DNA of 35,904 nt from a virus: UHGV virus genome UHGV-0042151, one strand, 5' to 3'. Position numbers and translations under genes: made by a program. Below the pieces are notes generated by a model. That model made no database searches and had not been told where the DNA came from. It saw only the letters and a program-made list of their open reading frames with translations. Below, piece by piece: positions 3,630 through 34,821 of this stretch (its first letter is position 1; each line of letters opens with the position of its first letter).

Positions 3630-3644
3630 TTACCGTTGAGGTAA
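3630..3644. promoter_or_regulatory. palindromic site TTACC-N5-GGTAA (proximal operator of early-left promoter)
   Basis: TTACCGTTGAGGTAA; lies between -10-like element and ATG 3610. Confidence 0.5.
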
Positions 3645-3706: not shown

Positions 3707-3786
3707 TCGAATAGGCAATAAAAAAGCCCCCCCAAAGCGGCGGTTCTTCTTTAAAAAAAAATTTTTTTTTTTTTTTTTTTTTTTTT

Positions 3787-3883
3787 NNNNNNNNNNNNNN
3801 NNNNNNNNNNNNNNNNNNNNNNNNNNNNNNNNNNNNNNNNNNNNNNNNNNNNNNNNNNNNNNNNNNNNNNNNNNNNNNNNNNN
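3787..3883. other. unresolved sequence (97 N) preceded by A9-T25 homopolymer tract
   Basis: Run of N at 3787-3883; track ORFs spanning it are artefacts (X residues). Confidence 0.95.
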
Positions 3884-3896
3884 GAAAAATATGGTT

Positions 3897-4481
3897 TTAT
3901 TGTTTGTTTTTTTCGTTATGGTTGATGACAAATTCAATGTAACTTTCGATCTTTGCTTTCTCGGTTTCGGGTAACAATGCGTAGCGCGAGCGATCATAGT
4001 TGATGGTCGCAGGGTCGTGCGGGTGAATCAGTAATTCATAGCCGTGACGCCCGAATGCGGATGCAACATTCTCCAGGGTGGAAATGGAAACGCTGACCTC
4101 ATTGTTTAACAGGCGGCTGATTGTCACCTGGGCTACGCCGGATGCGCGGTGAAGTTTTCCCTGTGTTGAAAGGTCGCGGCTTTCGCTCATCCAGCGTTCC
4201 AGGTTGTGAGCCGCCAGCTGGCCAATGTCGCTTGGGCCGACAGGCTGAAAACCTTCCTGAGAAAGCGAGCGATCGATATCAAGCCAGTTACGGGGTTTAT
4301 TGGCGGCAGCTTCAATTTTTCGTGCAACCTGGTCGCCGATAACCTTCTTGCCAAGAGCCCAGCGGTTTACCAGATTTGCCTGAGTTCCAAGTTTTTCAGC
4401 CATCCGCGTCTGAACACCATTGAATTCACGGTCGATCAAGTCGTTGAGATTTTGCCTGCGGACGTCCTGGATACTTTTCAT
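3897..4481 (-). CDS. phage repressor-like protein with two tandem XRE/CI-type HTH domains, no S24 peptidase domain
   Basis: 194 aa; HTH-like segments 'MAEKLGTQANLVNRWALGKK' and 'ASGVAQVTISRLLNNEVSVSISTLENVA'; divergent from Cro-like gene; no Ala-Gly/Ser-Lys autocleavage module seen. Confidence 0.65.
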   Translation of the reverse strand: MKSIQDVRRQNLNDLIDREFNGVQTRMAEKLGTQANLVNRWALGKKVIGDQVARKIEAAANKPRNWLDIDRSLSQEGFQPVGPSDIGQLAAHNLERWMSESRDLSTQGKLHRASGVAQVTISRLLNNEVSVSISTLENVASAFGRHGYELLIHPHDPATINYDRSRYALLPETEKAKIESYIEFVINHNEKNKQ

Positions 4482-4536: not shown

Positions 4537-4551
4537 TTACCCAACAGGTAA
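4537..4551. promoter_or_regulatory. palindromic site TTACC-N5-GGTAA in repressor/cro intergenic region
   Basis: TTACCCAACAGGTAA; additional half-sites GGTAA (4563-4567) and TTACC (4586-4590) nearby. Confidence 0.5.
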
Positions 4552-4635
4552 ATGCACCCCACAGGTAACTATCCTTGATTTTTGTTACCTTATGGGTGAA
4601 TATTTATTATCTGAAATAAATATCAGGCAATAGCT

Positions 4636-4866
4636 ATGAGCGATAACGGACATTTCGATTTCAAAAAGCACTGGCTTGCACTTACTCCGGATGAGCGTGA
4701 AGCCTTCGCACAGGAAGCCGGAACGACGAGTCACTATATCCAGACTCACTTAACAGGTAAGCGCAAAATGCCAGGTAAGGTATTGATGAATGGGCTTTTT
4801 AAAGCCTGTAAAACAAGACAATGGCTGCGCTCAAAAGCAGAATTGGCATACTTCTTCTACTCATGA
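4636..4866 (+). CDS. Cro-like small HTH DNA-binding protein
   Basis: 76 aa, divergent to repressor; 'LTPDEREAFAQEAGTTSHYIQ' HTH-like; ends 24 nt before N-run. Confidence 0.5.
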   Translation: MSDNGHFDFKKHWLALTPDEREAFAQEAGTTSHYIQTHLTGKRKMPGKVLMNGLFKACKTRQWLRSKAELAYFFYS

Positions 4867-4889
4867 TATCCAGCCACAACCCTCTGTAN

Positions 4890-5024
4890 NNNNNNNNNNN
4901 NNNNNNNNNNNNNNNNNNNNNNNNNNNNNNNNNNNNNNNNNNNNNNNNNNNNNNNNNNNNNNNNNNNNNNNNNNNNNNNNNNNNNNNNNNNNNNNNNNNN
5001 NNNNNNNNNNNNNNNNNNNNNNNN
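4890..5024. other. unresolved sequence (135 N)
   Basis: Run of N at 4890-5024. Confidence 0.95.
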
Positions 5025-5046: not shown

Positions 5047-5061
5047 GTACCTCAAAGGTAA
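5047..5061. promoter_or_regulatory. palindromic site, imperfect (GTACC-N5-GGTAA)
   Basis: GTACCTCAAAGGTAA, 9/10 half-site match; 80 nt upstream of ATG 5142. Confidence 0.35.
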
Positions 5062-5141
5062 TAAAAAACCAAATCTGGTTGATCTTTTTTTTGTGTCAGC
5101 ACAAAATGACCGTAATCCCAATACTAATAACAGGGCTTACC

Positions 5142-5342
5142 ATGGAAATCATTACACGTATTGATGCCGCAAAGCGCGGACTTAAACGCTACTACACCGG
5201 AAAAACATGTAAGCACGGACATGACAGTGAACGCTGGGTTTACAACGGACACTGTGTTGAGTGCACCATGGAATCAAACCGTCGTATCAGGGCAGAGATT
5301 AAGCAGATCATGATTAATTCCTCCCCACAACATTCAAGCTGA
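5142..5342 (+). CDS. small Cys/His-rich zinc-finger-like protein (putative regulator)
   Basis: 66 aa 'CKHGH...CVEC'; alternative in-frame ATG at 5106; upstream region partly lost in N-run. Confidence 0.45.
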   Translation: MEIITRIDAAKRGLKRYYTGKTCKHGHDSERWVYNGHCVECTMESNRRIRAEIKQIMINSSPQHSS

Positions 5343-5357
5343 TAGCGGAGATTAATC

Positions 5358-6155
5358 ATGAGCAGACATGCAACAGATTGGGCCTGGGAGACAGATCCAG
5401 GTAGCTCATCATTAAAGCTCATACTGCTCTCGATGGCTGACAGAGCCGATGAATATAACCTCTGCTACCCCAGCATAGAACGCCTCGTTAAAGACACTTG
5501 CCTGAATAAAAAAACCGTGCAGGCCGGGCTTATATCGCTCATGAAAATGGGGCTTATTTCAGATACCGGAGAGAGAAAGGGAGCGACAAAAAGAGTGCGG
5601 GTTTTCTCTCTTAATATAACCAAAAACGGGAACATTAAAGGCAACCGGGAGGGGGGCAATGAACCCGAAAACGGGAATATTCCCAAAAACGGGATGTTGA
5701 ATGATCCCAAAAACGGGATGTTGAATGATCCCAAAAACGGGATCCAGAACCAGTCATATAACCAGTCATTTAACCAAGAGAGGGAGAGCAGGACAAAAAG
5801 CGGGGATTCTGTGCCTCATGACCCCGGAGCAAACAACGCCGTGATGAATAACTTTGTTCCTCCTGGTGGGCCAGGGCAATTAGGCAAATTTGTCATGCAT
5901 GAACAATGGCAGCCATCAGATGACTTTCTTCGGAAAAGCTCATTGCAGGGGATCTACCTGGACAGTCTGCCAACGGCACAGGAACTTGCAGAGTTCAGAA
6001 TTTACTGGATGGCTGAGGGTAAGGCATACCATCAGGCACAGTGGGAGCAGAAGCTGGCAAGGCGGCTGCAGATTAGCAGACAGAAGCAATCAACATTACC
6101 TGATAACAACGTTCCGCACTGGAACAGCCCTGAAGCATGGGAGGATTTCTTGTGA
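5358..6155 (+). CDS. replication initiator (lambda O-like) with internal iteron array
   Basis: GGAG SD then ATG 5358; N-terminal winged-helix-like region; four iterons embedded mid-gene, as in lambda O. Confidence 0.6.
   Translation: MSRHATDWAWETDPGSSSLKLILLSMADRADEYNLCYPSIERLVKDTCLNKKTVQAGLISLMKMGLISDTGERKGATKRVRVFSLNITKNGNIKGNREGGNEPENGNIPKNGMLNDPKNGMLNDPKNGIQNQSYNQSFNQERESRTKSGDSVPHDPGANNAVMNNFVPPGGPGQLGKFVMHEQWQPSDDFLRKSSLQGIYLDSLPTAQELAEFRIYWMAEGKAYHQAQWEQKLARRLQISRQKQSTLPDNNVPHWNSPEAWEDFL
5664..5742. repeat. iteron array (candidate origin of replication)
   Basis: CCC(G/A)AAAACGGGA at 5664, 5682, 5706, 5730 (spacing 18/24/24), followed by AT-rich 'ACCAGTCAT' x2. Confidence 0.6.
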
Positions 6156-6974: not shown

Positions 6975-6989
6975 TTACCTGTTAGGTAA
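6975..6989. promoter_or_regulatory. palindromic site TTACC-N5-GGTAA (distal operator)
   Basis: TTACCTGTTAGGTAA; 20 bp upstream of -35 at 7009. Confidence 0.5.
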
Positions 6990-10163: not shown

Positions 10164-10577
10164 ATGACCACTATAACCAAAGAGCGACTACTGACAATCA
10201 AGCAGTGGCGCGAAACATACGGACCTGGTAGCAACGTTGTACTGCCAGCAGAAGAAGCGGAAGAACTGGCGCGGATTGCTCTGGCAGCGCTGGAAGTCGA
10301 GCCGATAGGTTTCCGTTGCAGGCGCAATGATAACCTTGGTGATTGGAGTTACGTATATCATCGAGAGCCAGATGATTTTGAGCGCAAACATTTAGTGATA
10401 GAGGGCATTTACGCCGCCCATCCAGCACCGGTAGTGCCTGAAGAAGCAACTCCGGAAAACGTAGAAATGCTCTCTGGCTATGTTTCCACGTACAAATTAA
10501 CCGATAGCGAGCGCGATATTGCTGCCGAAAGATGGAACGCCTGCCGCGCCGCCATGCTTCAGGGTAAAGGAGAGTGA
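10164..10577 (+). CDS. hypothetical protein, 'MTTIT' paralog 2
   Basis: 'MTTITKERLLTIKQ...ARIALAALEVEP...QGKGE'. Confidence 0.55.
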   Translation: MTTITKERLLTIKQWRETYGPGSNVVLPAEEAEELARIALAALEVEPIGFRCRRNDNLGDWSYVYHREPDDFERKHLVIEGIYAAHPAPVVPEEATPENVEMLSGYVSTYKLTDSERDIAAERWNACRAAMLQGKGE

Positions 10578-10578
10578 T

Positions 10579-11142
10579 ATGACCACTATAACCGATAAGA
10601 AACAGTATCCAGGCGAGCAATATCTTAATGAGCTGATCACCAACATAGAGTTTGCTGCAAGGGCACCAGTTGAAGTCGTGAGAGCAATGGCAGCAGAGCT
10701 ACAGAAGCGGCGCGAAGCTGATAGTGCAGAACCTGTAAGTAATCATGAAGAGTTGCCGCTTGATTATCTCCAAGGTCAAAAAGATGGTCTTGAATGGGCT
10801 GCGCAGCTTGCAGAAGCAAATCACCCACAAACTGGCGACTGGCTTTACGATGACCCGCTGGAGCTGGCTAAAGCTATCAGAAAAGGTCCTGACATGCCTG
10901 AATTCGATGGACCAACTCCGGTAACTACGGATGGTTGGATAAGCTGTAGTGATCTAATGCCGGAAGACACCAAAATGTTACTGGCATTTAGTCAAGGTGA
11001 AATCGTGGCAGCATATTGGAACTGGGTTGTAAATCCAATTGATTACAAAAAATATAGAGCTTTCACGTATTTATCAGGAAATATCTTGGATGACGTAACT
11101 CACTGGATGCCGCTACCAGAGCCGCCGCAGGAGGTGAAGTGA
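10579..11142 (+). CDS. 'MTTIT' paralog 3 fused to DUF551-like C-terminal domain
   Basis: AAAGGAGAG SD then ATG 10579; C-terminus '[23 protein letters not shown]...[10 protein letters not shown]' resembles DUF551. Confidence 0.55.
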
Positions 11143-11483
11143 TGGACTATTCACAGTTAAGTGATTTTGAAATTAACAGAATGGTAGGAGACATAATTTT
11201 TAAAGGCCTTTGGGCATGTAAACCGGAAACATCAGGGAATAACACCAACAAATGGTATTACGGAAATACTGATACAACTTTTGAGCCATTAAACCATTTA
11301 CCTGACTACTGCAATGATCCTAGCGCCTCATGGCCGATTATTGAGAAACACAGGATTTCTATCTTAGACCAGTTAACTGAATGGTGTGTTGATGCAAAAG
11401 GCGTAAGACCAATATTTGATACCAGACCTCTCCGCGCCGCCATGATTGTATTTCTCATGATGCAGGAAAATCAGAATGGCTAA
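11142..11483 (+). CDS. hypothetical protein (113 aa)
   Basis: TGATG overlap with upstream stop. Confidence 0.45.
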
Positions 11484-11814
11484 ATCAGCAGCAGAGCGCA
11501 AAGCCGCTCAGAGAGCCAGACAAGCTGCATCTGGTGTGCGTAAGCTGGAAATTGTGCTTGATGCTCAGGAAATTGAAATGCTGGAGCGTAACTGCGCCGC
11601 CCGGCGCCCTGGTCGCGATCCCTATGAAATGGCCGAGTACATCGCGCTGCTGATCCGCCAGGATGATGCACGCGTGCGCGGGCGTATAAAATCGATCAGC
11701 AGAAAACGTTGCGGTAAGTGCGGCGAGAGAGTTCCAGTTAATTCATGCCCGTGTAATGGTGACTCGCAATGCTGGGTGACTAAAGGCTGGCATGAAACGA
11801 AATTAATAGTGTGA
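11476..11814 (+). CDS. small basic protein with C-terminal Cys cluster (candidate regulator, last early gene)
   Basis: AGGAAAA SD then ATG 11476; '[23 protein letters not shown]'; directly followed by intrinsic terminator and terminase genes. Confidence 0.45.
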
Positions 11815-11822
11815 CATGTCAC
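11811..11822. promoter_or_regulatory. 12-bp perfect palindrome GTGACATGTCAC (copy 1 of 3)
   Basis: Overlaps stop codon of 11476..11814 gene; 40 bp upstream of terminator. Confidence 0.35.
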
Positions 11823-11863
11823 GAGTAGATTATGCATGATGAATTTGATGGGTTTTGAATACT

Positions 11864-11889
11864 GCCGCCAACTATGGCGGCTTTATTTT
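11864..11889 (+). terminator. rho-independent terminator at early/late boundary
   Basis: GCCGCC-aactat-GGCGGC hairpin followed by TTTATTTT. Confidence 0.55.
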
Positions 11890-11900
11890 GCATGGTATTA

Positions 11901-11915
11901 TTACCACAACGGTAA
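11901..11915. promoter_or_regulatory. palindromic site TTACC-N5-GGTAA upstream of terminase genes
   Basis: TTACCACAACGGTAA immediately after -10-like TATTAT (11895-11900), 18 nt before ATG 11933. Confidence 0.5.
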
Positions 11916-11932
11916 CAATTACCACGGTGGTT

Positions 11933-12529
11933 ATGATGCCTGCTGAACCTAAAACCTATAAACGCAAATCAACGCAATTTAAGCCGCTCACAGCAATGCA
12001 GGAGGCTTATTGCCAGTCATACATCAAAACGCCTGAAAACCAGACTCAGGCAGCGATTAACGCAGGATTCTCCCCAAATACAGCGGCAGTTAAAGCCAGT
12101 GTCATGATGCGCGATGAACGCATTCAAAAACGGATTGCCGAGTTGATGGAGGAGCGCAACAAACGAATGCGCGTCAGTGCTGATTACGTTCTCATGCGCT
12201 TGGTGGAGATCGACCAGATGGACGTGATCGATATCCTCAACGACGATGGGAGCCTTAAACCAATCCGTGAGTGGCCGAAAATCTGGCGCACTACGCTTAG
12301 TGGCTTTGATCTGTCATCGACCATCATGAACATGAACGAGGATTCGATAGAGACAATCCTCAAAAAAATTAAATGGCCTGACAAGGTGAAGAACCTAGAA
12401 CTGATTGGTAAGCATGTTGATGTCAACGCGTTCAAAGAACGTCTGGATGTTAATGTGAATGTGACAATTGCTGATCGCATAGCAGCAGCCAGGAAGCGAC
12501 TCAAAGAACGTCAGGATGGTAATCAGTGA
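11933..12529 (+). CDS. terminase small subunit
   Basis: 'LTAMQEAYCQSYIKTPENQTQAAINAGFS' matches the conserved terminase-small N-terminal pattern; start set at ATG 11933 (track start 11855 is TTG). Confidence 0.7.
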   Translation: MMPAEPKTYKRKSTQFKPLTAMQEAYCQSYIKTPENQTQAAINAGFSPNTAAVKASVMMRDERIQKRIAELMEERNKRMRVSADYVLMRLVEIDQMDVIDILNDDGSLKPIREWPKIWRTTLSGFDLSSTIMNMNEDSIETILKKIKWPDKVKNLELIGKHVDVNAFKERLDVNVNVTIADRIAAARKRLKERQDGNQ

Positions 12530-14001
12530 CAGATACAGCGTTATCTCCTGAAGAGCAGTTGATCGAGGATATTGCAGGGTTCACTCACGATCCGCTTGGC
12601 TATGCCCTCTATGCGTTCCCGTGGGGGGAAGAGGGGACTGAATTAGCACATGCCACCGGTCCACGTAAGTGGCAGGCTGATGCGTTCCGAGAGATACGTG
12701 ATCACCTGCAGAATCCAGAGACGCGCTATCAGCCGCTTATGCTGGCACGTGCTTCTGGTCATGGTATTGGTAAATCCGCATTCATCTCAATGCTGATCAA
12801 CTGGGGCATGTCCACTTGCGAGGATTGTAAGGTTGTGGTGACCGCCAACACCGACAACCAGCTACGAACGAAGACCTGGCCGGAAATTATCAAGTGGTCG
12901 AACCTTGCCATCACGAAAGACTGGTTTACCTGTACCGCTACCGCGATGTACAGCAATGATCCTGGGCACGACAAGCGGTGGCGAGCTGACGCAATCCCCT
13001 GGTCTGAGCACAACACTGAGGCATTCGCCGGACTACACAACGAGCGCAAACGCATCATCGTGGTATTCGATGAAGCGTCGAACATTGCGGATCTGGTGTG
13101 GGAAGTTGCTGAGGGTGCGCTTACGGACGAAGACACTGAGATTATCTGGGTGGCGTTCGGAAACCCTACACGTAATACCGGGCGTTTTCGCGAATGTTTC
13201 CGCAAATACAAACACCGCTGGAAAACTGCGCAGATTGACAGCCGGACGGTGGAAGGTACTAACAAACAGCAGTTGCAGAAATGGGTTGATGACTACGGGG
13301 AAGACAGCGACTTCGTTAAAATCCGTGTGCGCGGCATATTCCCTGATGCATCTGAATTGCAGTTTATCCCTACCGGTCTTACTGATGAGGCAATGAAACG
13401 GGTGGTAACCGCTGCGCAGGTGGCTCATGCTCCGGTGATAATCGGTGTTGACCCGGCATATTCAGGCGTTGATGACGCGGTGATATACCTGCGGCAGGGG
13501 TTGCATAGTAAGGTGCTATGGACTGGCAACAAGACCACTGACGATCTGATTATGGCGAAGCGTATCGCTGACTTTGAAGACCAGTATCAGGCTGACGCGG
13601 TGTTCATCGACTTCGGTTACGGAACCGGTCTGAAGTCAATCGGTGACGGCTGGGGGCGCACATGGCAACTTGTTCCGTTCGGTGGTGCGTCAACTGACCC
13701 TCAGATGCTCAACAAGCGCGGGGAGATGTTCAACTCATGCAAGACATGGCTGAGGTTGGGCGGGATGCTGGATGACCAGGAAACAGCGGACGATCTGTCG
13801 GCGGCAGAGTACAAAGTTCGCGTGGACGGTAAAATCGTTATCGAACCGAAGGAAGATATCAAAGAACGACTTGGGCGTTCGCCGGGTAAAGGCGATGCGC
13901 TACTGCTGACGTTTGCTTTCCCTGTGTCGAAGCGTCTGCGAATTCCCGGGCAGCAGAACCAGCAAGGCAAGGCCATCACAGATTACGATCCCTATGCTTA
14001 A
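12526..14001 (+). CDS. terminase large subunit
   Basis: 491 aa; Walker-A-like 'ASGHGIGKSAF'; GTG 12526 overlaps TerS stop; position after TerS. Confidence 0.75.
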   Translation: MTDTALSPEEQLIEDIAGFTHDPLGYALYAFPWGEEGTELAHATGPRKWQADAFREIRDHLQNPETRYQPLMLARASGHGIGKSAFISMLINWGMSTCEDCKVVVTANTDNQLRTKTWPEIIKWSNLAITKDWFTCTATAMYSNDPGHDKRWRADAIPWSEHNTEAFAGLHNERKRIIVVFDEASNIADLVWEVAEGALTDEDTEIIWVAFGNPTRNTGRFRECFRKYKHRWKTAQIDSRTVEGTNKQQLQKWVDDYGEDSDFVKIRVRGIFPDASELQFIPTGLTDEAMKRVVTAAQVAHAPVIIGVDPAYSGVDDAVIYLRQGLHSKVLWTGNKTTDDLIMAKRIADFEDQYQADAVFIDFGYGTGLKSIGDGWGRTWQLVPFGGASTDPQMLNKRGEMFNSCKTWLRLGGMLDDQETADDLSAAEYKVRVDGKIVIEPKEDIKERLGRSPGKGDALLLTFAFPVSKRLRIPGQQNQQGKAITDYDPYA

Positions 14002-14051: not shown

Positions 14052-14079
14052 AGCCAGCTCATCGGCTGGCTGTTTGTGA
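14052..14079. terminator. bidirectional intrinsic terminator
   Basis: AGCCAGC-tcatcg-GCTGGCT hairpin with U-rich flank on + strand; lies between convergent genes. Confidence 0.45.
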
Positions 14080-14091: not shown

Positions 14092-14511
14092 TTATTTAAT
14101 GGCATTAAATCCAGCGTTGATGGCTTCCGCAATATTGATGGCACTTGTTTTATCGAAGTGCCCATTCTGAATAAGCGCCGCATGCAGGCATTGTAACTTC
14201 ATGTTGTATAAGTGTTCGCTCATGTAATCATTATCACTTTTTGCTTTAGCGTAAACAGCGCGAGAAATATCAAACACATCGCCTTTTTCCATTTCAGAAC
14301 GTTGTGCTGTTATCCAGTCATGGAACGTAACGCTAGTACCATGGTCTTCGCTAAGAGTTAACCCGGCCAGTCCCTCACTCTGAATTACTTCGTAATGCAT
14401 TTCATTATCAGCAAAAACGCCATAAAAAATGCAGTCTTCAGCCTGAACGATACGAGAATATTTTAATGGCCATTCATTTAGATACTTAGCCAACATATCA
14501 ATTGTCTTCAT
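14092..14511 (-). CDS. hypothetical moron protein (139 aa), opposite strand to packaging genes
   Basis: AAGGTGAG SD then ATG 14511; no recognisable domain; embedded between TerL and portal. Confidence 0.5.
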   Translation of the reverse strand: MKTIDMLAKYLNEWPLKYSRIVQAEDCIFYGVFADNEMHYEVIQSEGLAGLTLSEDHGTSVTFHDWITAQRSEMEKGDVFDISRAVYAKAKSDNDYMSEHLYNMKLQCLHAALIQNGHFDKTSAINIAEAINAGFNAIK

Positions 14512-14522
14512 GATCTCACCTT

Positions 14523-14546
14523 AAAAAAATGCCCGGCGAACCGGGC
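14523..14546 (-). terminator. rho-independent terminator (minus strand) downstream of tRNA-Arg
   Basis: GCCCGG-ttcg-CCGGGC followed by U7 on minus strand; U-run abuts the SD of the 14511 gene. Confidence 0.55.
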
Positions 14547-14709
14547 GAACTGGAAGCAATGAGTTATGCCTTCCGTGGCTGTACGGGTTTACAGCATGAA
14601 GTCATCGCAATGGCGTCCTGCTGTAAAAAGGGCGGTGATAGTCCTTCAAGGGAAACTATCACCGCCAAGCACCTGGAGCTTCTGGCATCACGGTCCTTAG
14701 GCGTGATTC

Positions 14710-14786
14710 TGGCGTGGCATGCAGGATTCGAACCTGCGACCAACCGCTTAGAAGGCGGTTGCTCTGTCCAACTGAGCTAATGCCAC
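14710..14786 (-). tRNA. tRNA-Arg (anticodon UCU)
   Basis: Hand-folded cloverleaf: acceptor GTGGCAT/ATGCCAC, D-arm GCTC-AGTTGGACA-GAGC, anticodon arm ACCGC-CTTCTAA-GCGGT, T-arm GCAGG-TTCGAAT-CCTGC, 3' GCCA; similar to but distinct from E. coli argU as recalled. Confidence 0.9.
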
Positions 14787-15108: not shown

Positions 15109-15123
15109 TTACCTAAAGGGTAA
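15109..15123. promoter_or_regulatory. palindromic site TTACC-N5-GGTAA upstream of portal operon
   Basis: TTACCTAAAGGGTAA, 90 nt upstream of ATG 15214. Confidence 0.45.
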
Positions 15124-31630: not shown

Positions 31631-31631
31631 A

Positions 31632-31655
31632 GGCCGCTTTCGCGGCCTTGTTTTT
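31632..31655 (+). terminator. rho-independent terminator
   Basis: GGCCGC-tttc-GCGGCC followed by TTGTTTTT. Confidence 0.6.
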
Positions 31656-32548: not shown

Positions 32549-32563
32549 TTACCTTTAAGGTAA
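32549..32563. promoter_or_regulatory. palindromic site TTACC-N5-GGTAA at promoter of two-gene operon
   Basis: Minus-strand TTGCAG-17-TACTAT promoter-like element abuts the site; site abuts SD. Confidence 0.5.
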
Positions 32564-32635: not shown

Positions 32636-33322
32636 TCAGAAGAACCCAGCCTTGTCGTTGATGTACTCCGCGTGGGTCTGGATATCACGCAGGCATTTGC
32701 TCACACCAACAATGTAGCAGAACATGGTGGTCAGCTCCGCCGCCGCGCCCGATACGTCGTGCCCGTCTTCCTGTAACTGGTTCAGCAGATTCATCAGCAG
32801 TGAGTTCTCCGTCAGGCCGAGAACACCAGACGGAGAATGAATCAGGCTGCGGTAGCCGGGCTTCAGTGGGGCACTGTAGGTTTTGTTCTCTATCTTCATT
32901 GCCTGCATCACTGCTGATGCTGTGGCGTTGGCTACCTGGTCGGCAACTATCTTTATGCGTTCTTCCTGCGGGAGCGAGTTTTTAATGTAACTTCCGGTGC
33001 GGCGGATCTGAGGAAGAACCTCACCTGTAACCCATTTACGAAAGCGGTAGGGGATAGTGCCTGGTGTCACTGCGTCGCGGCAGCGGAGGATCAGTGTGTA
33101 GAGGCCTGACTCGTTGATAATATTGGTTTCACCTTGACGGCCTAAGTTAAATTTAGCCCTTTCATCATCATCAAGAGATTTTATTGACATAGTGGGGTTT
33201 GTCAGTTGAAGAGCTTTAATAACGTCTTTGGCAACAAACCAAGGATTTCCATCAATAACAATGGCTCGAATGGTGGCTTCTGATTCAAAATGAAAAACAG
33301 ATGGGGTTACGTTAGCAGTCAT
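32636..33322 (-). CDS. Bro-N domain antirepressor-like protein
   Basis: N-terminus 'IRAIVIDGNPWFVAKDVIKALQL...GLYTLILR' fits Bro-N; C-terminal domain homologous to the 34473..34730 product; AGGTGA SD then ATG 33322. Confidence 0.65.
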   Translation of the reverse strand: MTANVTPSVFHFESEATIRAIVIDGNPWFVAKDVIKALQLTNPTMSIKSLDDDERAKFNLGRQGETNIINESGLYTLILRCRDAVTPGTIPYRFRKWVTGEVLPQIRRTGSYIKNSLPQEERIKIVADQVANATASAVMQAMKIENKTYSAPLKPGYRSLIHSPSGVLGLTENSLLMNLLNQLQEDGHDVSGAAAELTTMFCYIVGVSKCLRDIQTHAEYINDKAGFF

Positions 33323-33481
33323 AGTGATCACCTTTTAGTATGGTTAATCACCACCTGAGGTGCAAATCTCGTTGGTGGTGAGACGTACAGGGTTTGCACT
33401 ACCGGCTAAAAGGACCCGGCGCACCTTTCGGTGCCCCTGCACGTCCCACCATAATTCTGGCATGACTGTGCTATACGCATA

Positions 33482-33503
33482 AAAAAACCACGTCTGGCGT
33501 GGT
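33482..33503 (-). terminator. intrinsic terminator inside Bro-N upstream region (possible sRNA or attenuator 3' end)
   Basis: Minus strand ACCACG-CCAGA-CGTGGT followed by U7. Confidence 0.4.
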
Positions 33504-33593
33504 ATGCGCCTTTTAGTAATCCGGGGTGCAAATCCCGGCACTGGATTTTGCCAGTGCCCGATTACTATGGCACAAGAGGAGTGCGATGTAAAT

Positions 33594-33721: not shown

Positions 33722-34450
33722 ATGGAAGTTTTCTGGATAGTTGTTGGTGTGGTTGCGGTGATTATTTACGTTATCAACCAGAACAAGACTAAGATCTCTG
33801 ATCGTACGGTCGTTAATCAGAACAAAACGATAAAGACCGAAGATGGGGAGATAACGATTAATCGTACACAGGTGATAGAGCACACATCTACTCAGTTTCA
33901 AAAAACTGGAGGTAACGCGCCTGATATTTCCGTACCTCCTGCTTATGATAGTGCGGTAATCCAGACATATTATAAACAGCAGGAGTTAGCAAAAGAGAGG
34001 CAACTGATTCAGCCAAAGCCGTTTACAGCTGAGCTTCCACCTGGAGTGTCAACGCGTCCGGCATATCATGGAAGATTCCCTGGTGATGACATATCGTCTC
34101 AGTCATTTAAAAAAGCACCTCAGGCAGTATCAGAGCCAGCAAGAATATCTTCTGTATCGCCGCCAAAAGAAGAATCAGCTAACAGAGTTTCAAGCGGTAG
34201 CAAGCAGTGCTTGCGATGCAGAATAAACCTTCCATATGAAAAATTCAGGAAATCGTCAAAAAATCCGGATGGATTGACTAAGTGGTGTGCAAGGTGTCTC
34301 GATGGCCCAAAGAATACACGTCATATGAAGTGGTGCCCAATTTGTAATGTCCGCAGAAAACGAACCAGCTTTTACCCTAATAATCAAAATGCGGACGGCT
34401 TAATGGCATGGTGCAAAACGTGCTGGGACGAGCACAAAGCGAAACGATAG
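33722..34450 (+). CDS. membrane-anchored protein with duplicated C-terminal zinc-ribbon (CxxC...WCxxC) modules
   Basis: N-terminal TM helix 'FWIVVGVVAVIIYVI'; 'CLRCRIN...WCARCLD' and 'WCPICNV...WCKTCWD'. Confidence 0.5.
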   Translation: MEVFWIVVGVVAVIIYVINQNKTKISDRTVVNQNKTIKTEDGEITINRTQVIEHTSTQFQKTGGNAPDISVPPAYDSAVIQTYYKQQELAKERQLIQPKPFTAELPPGVSTRPAYHGRFPGDDISSQSFKKAPQAVSEPARISSVSPPKEESANRVSSGSKQCLRCRINLPYEKFRKSSKNPDGLTKWCARCLDGPKNTRHMKWCPICNVRRKRTSFYPNNQNADGLMAWCKTCWDEHKAKR

Positions 34451-34806: not shown

Positions 34807-34821
34807 TTACCTGAAAGGTAA
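34807..34821. promoter_or_regulatory. palindromic site TTACC-N5-GGTAA between antirepressor and tailspike genes
   Basis: TTACCTGAAAGGTAA. Confidence 0.45.

Follow-up and report, generated by a model that had tools for sequence, protein, structure and literature searches.

The viral genome UHGV-0042151 was analyzed as one stretch of 35,904 nucleotides (the window), with the focus on positions 11476-11932, where the rightward early genes end and the terminase genes begin. The last early-right gene (11476-11814, + strand) encodes a protein of 112 amino acids with a cysteine cluster near its C terminus (referred to below as the Cys protein), and its stop codon is overlapped by a 12-bp palindrome, GTGACATGTCAC (11811-11822; site P1). 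An intrinsic terminator (11864-11889), an extended -10 element (11893-11901), and two further palindromes (O1, 11901-11915, and O2, 11919-11933) separate this gene from terS (11936-12529) and terL (12526-14001), which encode the small and large terminase subunits and make up the first late operon (11936-14001, + strand), as indicated by a Terminase_2 match (E = 1e-29) and by the annotation of relatives. The ATG at 11936 was taken as the start of terS, since the alternative TTG at 11855, present in the list of open reading frames and in the phiV10 record, would put the terminator inside the gene. An earlier note on this DNA had listed the 11476-11814 reading frame, the terminator, the TATTAT hexamer, a palindromic site, and terS, all of which are indeed present where it located them; the palindrome at 11811-11822 had been overlooked.

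Judged by its sequence, the window is a prophage of the phiV10/TL-2011b/epsilon15 type (genus Uetakevirus). A megablast search with positions 10500-13000 revealed 94-98% identity to Escherichia phages ZX5, TL-2011b, phiV10, and their relatives, and 78% identity to epsilon15, and the window agreed gene for gene with the annotated maps of its relatives. The leftward early arm contains a methylase gene, a PerC-like gene, an AlpA/Xis-like gene, and the genes for RecT and an exonuclease. Rightward, a cro-like gene (4636-4866) is followed by O-like and P-like replication genes, by small accessory genes (Ead/Ea22, DUF551, and NinX), and by the gene for the Cys protein, while portal and other structural genes, an ant/C4 region, and the tail fibre lie beyond terS and terL. 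Both the DNA similarity and the shared order of a gp49-like gene, a terminator, terS, and terL, with the lysis cassette past the tail fibre, make the region a Uetakevirus junction. The stretch 11476-11932 is an ordinary early-to-late junction of this genus, already annotated there and hence not new: epsilon15 and phiV10 have the same gene order, with gp49 or gp55 as the last early gene, followed by a terminator and by a predicted repressor site just in front of terS, and there is no essential difference that would set the window apart from them as anything but another member.

It had been claimed that neither an antiterminator nor a lysis cassette precedes the terminase genes and that the lysis genes must lie outside the window. 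Both statements were borne out. The early open reading frames that were scanned with Pfam and PHROG profiles contained no Q- or N-like family. The window stops inside the tail-fibre gene, which extends from 34926 onwards (PHROG 5662), and according to the GenBank records of phiV10, TL-2011b, and epsilon15, which here agree with every relative examined, the genes for holin, endolysin, and Rz are located past the tail fibre and an O-antigen modification gene, just before int. A lysis cassette missing in front of the terminase is thus the normal state of the genus.

The terminator closing the early-right operon, called strong in the note, is canonical. Folding revealed a stem-loop at 11864-11881, followed by TTTATTTT, with a 7-bp stem containing six G-C pairs and a 4-nt loop; together with the subsequent UUUAUUUU, this is the make-up of an intrinsic terminator. 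Its energy is -14.5 kcal/mol (z = -4.1), an equally good fold was obtained in none of 200 shuffled sequences, and the element is kept across relatives and annotated in epsilon15 and phiV10. Directly downstream lies TGgTATTAT (11893-11901, + strand; TATTAT at 11896-11901), an extended -10 element that overlaps O1. Elements of this kind with at least five of six matches occur only three times in the whole window, both strands included. It has no -35 counterpart, the position of the latter being taken by the terminator stem.

Nine junctions were aligned, derived from prophages of E. coli, Salmonella, Citrobacter, Klebsiella, Superficieibacter, and Rahnella and from one metagenome-assembled prophage-bearing contig. 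Four elements were conserved among them: the 12-bp stop-codon palindrome, the terminator (CCGCC..GGCGG with a T-run), the sequence TGnTAnnAT, and the arms of O1, the centre of which is free to vary. TGnTAnnAT was found in all of the aligned junctions (as TGTTACTAT, TGGTACTAT, TGTTAGTAT, and TGTTATGAT), and from this conservation we infer promoter activity. The spacer between the stop-codon palindrome and the terminator ranged from 13 to 60 nt and contained no conserved promoter, while O2 was present in the E. coli and Salmonella types and absent in the Rahnella types. In otherwise similar prophages of Pseudocitrobacter and Citrobacter (locus L013, 3336-3805, and locus L014), P1 is separated from the operator and terS by an insertion that comprises a LexA-box-like palindrome and a gene for a 119-residue UmuD-like protein. 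Two other arrangements were considered for the junction and rejected, namely (i) a Q/PR'/tR' layout with GTGACA-18-CATGAT as the promoter, the supposed -10 and spacing of which are not conserved and which in epsilon15-type junctions would have the terminator begin at the start site, and (ii) an alternative RNA structure that connects P1 with the terminator, as the fold of 11805-11895 yields only a weak, separate hairpin at P1 (z = -1.8).

The palindromes in front of terS follow the motif TTACC-N5-GGTAA. O1 (TTACCACAACGGTAA) is a perfect copy that overlaps the -10 element and the predicted start near 11908, its arms being invariant and its centre variable in the alignment, and O2 (TTACCACGGTGGTTA) has one mismatch and overlaps the ribosome-binding site of terS. 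In total, the window contains 11 perfect copies, compared with 0.03 expected from shuffled sequences, and a few more with one or two mismatches; there are eight copies in phiV10 and 11 in epsilon15. Three operators (4537-4599) lie between the cro-like gene and the gene for a repressor of the two-helix-turn-helix type (3897-4481, - strand; PHROG 8 and other repressor families), the counterpart of phiV10 gp40 and epsilon15 gp38. The first of them, at 4537, is perfect, those at 4554 and 4585 have two mismatches and one, respectively, and they are accompanied by a promoter-like TTGTTA-17-TATTAT. A perfect operator is also found upstream of the portal operon (15109-15123), and the epsilon15 record labels the equivalent sites as repressor sites. 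Further perfect copies begin at 3630 and 3692 (left of the repressor gene), at 6975 and 7037 (after the P-like gene), at 32549, 33594, and 33687 (in the ant/C4 region), and at 34807 (before the tail fibre), and a copy with one mismatch at 5047 comes after the terminator that follows cro. The succession of a terminator and an operator is also seen after cro and after the P-like gene.

In the GenBank record of epsilon15 the motif is labelled 'protein_bind, repressor, lysogeny' at seven places, and the one at 12-27 is the exact counterpart of O1 upstream of terS. No TTACC-N5-GGTAA was found in lambda, nor in ZF40, Chlobot, K233, or 0.88 Mb of N15-like loci; apart from lambda, all of these encode a Cys-protein homolog. 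The copy number, the position between the repressor and cro-like genes, the epsilon15 annotation, and the absence from other carriers of the Cys gene indicate that the palindrome before terS is a site of the immunity repressor. Its binder is thus most likely the predicted immunity repressor, and not the Cys protein, and the cro-like protein probably binds it as well. The earlier note implied that the Cys protein might activate late transcription through the palindrome before terS, which is at odds with this palindrome being one of 11 repressor-type operators missing in the other phages with a Cys gene; the clean split between the operator and the stop-codon palindrome among the gene carriers rules this protein out as the binder of TTACC-N5-GGTAA.

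The same palindromes might instead be read as the pac site of the small terminase rather than as operators. They lie directly upstream of a terS of the Terminase_2 family, and SPP1 offers a precedent, its pacL site overlapping the terS promoter. However, a motif that occurs 11 times in the window, the immunity and ant regions included, and that is annotated as a repressor site in epsilon15 makes a packaging site most improbable.

A parallel is phage P1, where the C1 repressor has many dispersed operators and the immI region comprises c4-icd-ant. As in that phage, a single immunity repressor would act on operators at many operon starts, and the window also has a C4 antisense RNA of the phage P1 type and an ant gene; the differences are that its repressor has two helix-turn-helix motifs and that the operator is another one. 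The late genes of phage P1 additionally need the activator Lpa, and no Lpa-like factor was identified in the window. The immI module itself (32636-33557, - strand) consists of a C4 antisense RNA (33371-33456), an isrK-like RNA (33481-33557), and an anti-repressor gene of the Ant/Bro-N type (32636-33331), and it is flanked by the operators at 32549, 33594, and 33687. At the start of several rightward operons, namely the unit after the replication genes and the portal, tail-fibre, and lysis operons, the operator is followed after 29-43 nt by an element resembling TATGTGGTT (window 7023, 15167, 34853, and 3655; locus L007 2990, 19942, 24753, and 35955). A half operator, GGTAAT, often comes next, and terS has only GTGGTTA. 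The genome-wide count of TATGTGGTT is not significant (12 versus 7.2 expected), yet its positional link to the operator and its conservation in epsilon15 and phiV10 are clear.

The extended -10 element and operator conserved before terS from E. coli to Rahnella favour fresh initiation over read-through. We hold it to be probable, if only just, that terS and terL are started afresh at a promoter of their own, which is held off by the prophage repressor without any Q-type antiterminator, and that the Cys protein has a separate site, the palindrome at its stop codon. Rightward early transcription would stop at the terminator at 11864-11889, and terS-terL would then be transcribed from the extended -10 promoter at 11893-11901, overlapped by the two operators. 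In a lysogen, the repressor encoded at 3897-4481 would shut the late operon directly by occupying O1 and O2, and the same motif would also guard both early arms, the unit that follows the replication genes, the portal operon, the ant region, and the gene for the tail fibre. The phage would thereby be built of serial units, each shut by a terminator and reopened under repressor control, and serial re-initiation under a single repressor would replace Q-type antitermination. The proposal that late transcription starts afresh under a palindrome-binding factor can consequently be kept in part: the conserved extended -10 element with its operator speaks for the fresh start, whereas the factor would be the repressor, that is, a negative control, and not an activating Cys protein. 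In the Q/PR'/tR' region of lambda, the early operon likewise ends in a regulator gene, which is followed by a terminator and late genes, but the window has neither a Q homolog nor a conserved promoter between the gene and the terminator; its late operon opens with terminase rather than lysis genes, and a repressor operator lies on the late promoter.

The stop-codon palindrome follows the pattern GTGAC-N2-GTCAC. The perfect 12-bp GTGACATGTCAC occurs three times in the window, compared with 0.01 times in shuffled sequences. Besides P1, there is P2 (14076-14087), which lies 4 nt from the stem of a bidirectional terminator (14052-14071) between terL and a convergent gene (14092-14511, - strand), and P3 (31619-31630), which abuts the terminator (31631-31648, + strand) that ends the structural operon. 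An identical 12-mer is found at the same three positions in epsilon15, phiV10, and PAT1 despite differing sequences of the neighbouring terminators. The terminator beside P2 differs between window/phiV10, epsilon15, and PAT1, and the 4-nt gap to its stem is kept; P3 is conserved in epsilon15 (19517), phiV10 (19493), and TL-2011b. The palindromes carry no annotation in the GenBank records of epsilon15 and phiV10.

Homologs of the Cys gene in unrelated phages are accompanied by the same pattern. GTGAC-N2-GTCAC was found at or just past the stop codon in ZF40, Chlobot, N15 (GTGACTGGTCAC, repeated identically within repA), and a P2-like Yersinia phage (GTGACGCGTCAC), and Vibrio phage K233, the protein of which is 32% identical, has three copies, one of them 226 nt past the gene and another 19 nt before the terS ATG. 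Lambda has no copy. In 80 Uetakevirus-like viral loci (1.39 Mb), the arms were separated by 2 bp in 129 copies and by any other spacer between 0 and 6 in four, all with spacer 5, and the palindrome stood at the gene end in 75 of the 80; in 49 N15-like loci (0.88 Mb), there were 105 copies with spacer 2, none with another spacer, and a palindrome at every gene end (49/49). Among the loci from bacterial genomes, 14 of 21 had it at the stop codon. Since each set consists of close relatives, the counts are not independent, and it is the recurrence on six different phage backbones, rather than the number of loci, that indicates that the site travels with the gene. GTGAC-N2-GTCAC is therefore most likely the cognate target of the Cys protein, as far as this linkage goes, and P1 its probable site in the junction. 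A reporter fusion of 11890-11932, as had been suggested for testing the protein, would accordingly omit its probable target. None of the palindrome sequences was found in the papers of the library searched, and the protein-site pair seems to be the one new item here, apparently undescribed. Extra copies were also observed inside early genes, a few hundred bases past early promoters, in repA of N15 (locus L004, 1735, corresponding to 33237 of the record) and in cII and gp08 of ZF40 (locus L010, 5125 and 7622), which suggests that the protein acts there on early transcription or replication.

The Cys protein is a homolog of epsilon15 gp49, phiV10 gp55, and N15 gp46 and belongs to PHROG 536, 'transcriptional regulator', the profile of which matches it over its full length (residues 1-111, E = 1.1e-54); RefSeq gives it the same name. 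The family is of modest size, with 776 clusters at 90% identity and 160 representatives at 50%, and occurs in phages of Vibrio, Escherichia, Klebsiella, Salmonella, Yersinia, Aeromonas, Enterobacter, and Pectobacterium. Residues 1-23 include seven basic and one acidic, and the cysteines are arranged as C79-x2-C82, C91-x-C93, and C99. Across 56 aligned members of the family, C79 and C82 were invariant, C99, R8, and R13 were at least 90% conserved, and most members had a cysteine at the position of C91, as read from the displayed rows. The AlphaFold2 model (predicted local distance difference test score 91.5) has helices at residues 5-19, 30-42, 52-75, and 100-108 and a small knuckle at 76-99, and it shows the strand-helix-helix fold of the ribbon-helix-helix (RHH; Arc/MetJ/CopG) superfamily. 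By sequence profiles no RHH family was recovered, the best NCBIfam match, 'LexA regulated protein' (E = 0.054), being under its cut-off, and no Pfam family, Ogr_Delta included, matched at E < 0.01. Weak profile matches in the PDB were TraR (E = 0.04) and YbiI (E = 0.06). A C4 finger of the DksA/TraR kind was rejected, since the cysteine spacing differs (C-x2-C-x8-C-x7-C versus C-x2-C-x17-C-x2-C) and neither Pfam nor Foldseek returned a match. A fold search of viral proteins (BFVD) yielded a single match, a fragment of the same family.

On the strength of this model, the protein is best described as a DNA binder of the RHH dimer type with a basic N-terminal helix and a C-terminal four-cysteine zinc knuckle. 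From the linkage of GTGAC-N2-GTCAC to the gene we infer that a dimer binds palindromic DNA, and recognition of the palindrome arms would be in keeping with R8 and R13, conserved in the N-terminal helix, and with a central dinucleotide that varies. Arc, Mnt (of the P22 immI region), and CopG share the small dimeric RHH fold that recognizes a short palindrome, but the Cys protein has in addition a basic N-terminal helix and a C-terminal four-cysteine knuckle, and the site proposed for it is found at the 3' end of the gene that encodes it rather than at a promoter. Ogr of P2, Delta of P4, and TraR/DksA are also small phage zinc proteins with four cysteines, and they act on RNA polymerase; in contrast to them, the Cys protein has no Pfam match, and the TraR/YbiI hit (E = 0.04) was left unconfirmed by Foldseek.

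The Cys protein might be a late activator of the Ogr/Delta or Lpa kind that acts at P1, some 90 bp ahead of the terS start, to aid the polymerase at the promoter once the repressor is gone. A small basic zinc protein encoded at the end of the early operon, a late promoter without a -35 element, the K233 copy 19 nt before the terS ATG, and the label 'transcriptional regulator' in RefSeq and PHROG would suit such a role. However, the terminator hairpin stands between P1 and the promoter, the spacing differs from relative to relative (13-60 nt), P2 and P3 adjoin no gene start, and Pfam detects no Ogr_Delta or other domain. Moreover, in a Samsonia prophage (locus L025) terS has the operator and the extended -10 element with no terminator at all and no GTGAC-N2-GTCAC upstream. 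We consider an activator at P1 quite improbable.

The Cys protein could also be a new late antiterminator in place of Q, loading on RNA polymerase at P1, either on the DNA or on a hairpin of nascent GUGACAUGUCAC, with read-through into terS; in one variant this hairpin could be bound through the arginine-rich N terminus. In Uetakeviruses from E. coli to Rahnella, the early genes consistently end with this one, directly in front of the terminator and the late genes, and it lies at the early/late border in Vibrio phage K233 too. Furthermore, the palindrome is found 0-41 nt upstream of three terminators, the N terminus is rich in arginine, and the late promoter lacks a -35 element. On the other hand, P2 and P3 stand at convergent operon ends, where read-through would produce only antisense RNA, and the gene-site pair also occurs in N15 and in the lambda-like Chlobot, both of which have a Q of their own and in both of which the palindrome is followed by a ribosome-binding site and not by a terminator. 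The predicted fold is that of an RHH protein binding double-stranded DNA, no conserved promoter lies between the gene and the terminator, and a conserved extended -10 element with an operator would be needless if read-through fed terS. Antitermination by the Cys protein therefore appears unlikely.

A different comparison arises from the host chromosome. The matS site of E. coli is a 13-bp sequence, GTGAC-RNY-GTCAC (PMC3603311), bound by MatP, an RHH protein (PMC3603311, PMC3330122). Its arms are identical to those of the phage palindrome, and MatP shares the RHH fold predicted for the 112-residue protein; but matS has 13 bp with the spacer RNY, whereas the phage site has 12 bp with a spacer of 2. 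In 2.4 Mb of gene-carrying loci, spacer 2 was found in 261 copies and spacer 3 in none, so that the phage palindromes are not matS sites. Neither hhalign nor BLASTP revealed homology to MatP, and the four-helix bundle and coiled coil of MatP are absent from the 112-residue protein, which has a zinc knuckle instead. The lack of similarity to MatP and a palindrome that is always one base shorter place the protein outside the MatP/matS system, and the likeness to matS, together with the matching host range, is a lead only. The protein-site pair could nonetheless organize or mark DNA, by MatP-like bridging of P1, P2, and P3, by interference with host MatP/matS, or by aiding packaging around terS-terL. 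The constant spacer of 2, never 3, the absence of MatP sequence similarity, four-helix bundle, and coiled coil, and the single palindrome in many carriers speak against it, and we regard such a role as rather unlikely. A broader possibility is that the RHH-zinc protein and GTGAC-N2-GTCAC form an unrecognized site-specific system that is widespread in temperate phages of Enterobacterales, Vibrio, and Aeromonas and influences transcription at operon ends. In Uetakeviruses it would be the missing late switch and would open or seal the terminator at the junction via a matS-like site on the stop codon of its own gene; as a whole, this appears rather unlikely.

Within the account favoured here, late initiation at a repressor-controlled promoter, the Cys protein at P1, P2, and P3 would be a boundary element or roadblock that limits read-through, and, with a site on its own stop codon, it would limit its own synthesis. 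In Uetakeviruses all three sites adjoin terminators at operon ends, two of them between convergent units where an activator or antiterminator would serve no purpose, and the gene coexists with Q elsewhere, which is why we favour this role, with low confidence and as a working guess. Several points weigh against our account of the junction. Binding of the repressor is a prediction from the GenBank annotation and from the position of operators between cI and cro. A start near 11908 and an efficient terminator are presumptions; a literature search yielded no transcriptome study for the genus and no transcript or binding data, and the paper on ZX5 is silent on late control. A promoter without a -35 element may be weak or may need an activator. 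Furthermore, a single repressor on every operon provides no obvious timing of early and late genes, so an extra positive factor may exist; the candidates are the product of the PerC-like gene and the Cys protein itself. Finally, a roadblock leaves unexplained that in N15, Chlobot, and K233 the palindrome is directly followed by the ribosome-binding site of the next gene and that in ZF40 and N15 it lies inside genes. The PerC-like gene (693-992, - strand; PHROG 868, 'transcriptional activator') is located in the leftward early arm and is a candidate positive factor for the late promoters that lack a -35 element.

Several other features of the window were recorded. Two runs of N, at 3787-3883 (97 nt) and 4889-5024 (136 nt), coincide with short G+C-rich terminator hairpins of phiV10 and TL-2011b located after the repressor gene and after cro, and the sequence flanking the first run (3760-3786) looks degraded; the two runs probably represent gaps in the assembly, and to their right the window coordinates are shifted relative to the relatives. 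Five iterons of about 24 nt with the core CCCAAAAACGGGA (5612-5746) lie within the O-like initiator gene (5358-6155) and are probably the origin. Past terL and before the portal operon there is a gene for tRNA-Arg(TCT) (14710-14786, - strand), which runs against the late genes and overlaps an open reading frame on the + strand (14529-14780; PHROG 4647). The first gene past the cro terminator and the operator at 5047 is a 66-codon open reading frame at about 5140-5340 (MEIITRID...CKHGH...CVEC; PHROG 1081, 'function unknown'), and a Cys/His motif related to that of its product recurs in the C-terminal half of a 242-residue protein (33722-34450).

The junction by itself adds little: a common prophage group of E. 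coli and Salmonella manages without Q, and each of its operons, the late ones too, appears to be directly repressor-controlled behind a terminator. Direct repressor control of operons was already implied by the epsilon15 record, and it resembles the dispersed C1 operators of phage P1. If, however, the pairing of the Cys protein with GTGAC-N2-GTCAC holds, a family labelled 'hypothetical' or 'transcriptional regulator' in hundreds of prophages would gain a defined DNA site, with arms identical to those of the host matS, and this would open questions on the timing of late genes, on the insulation of operons, and on contact with the organization of the host chromosome.

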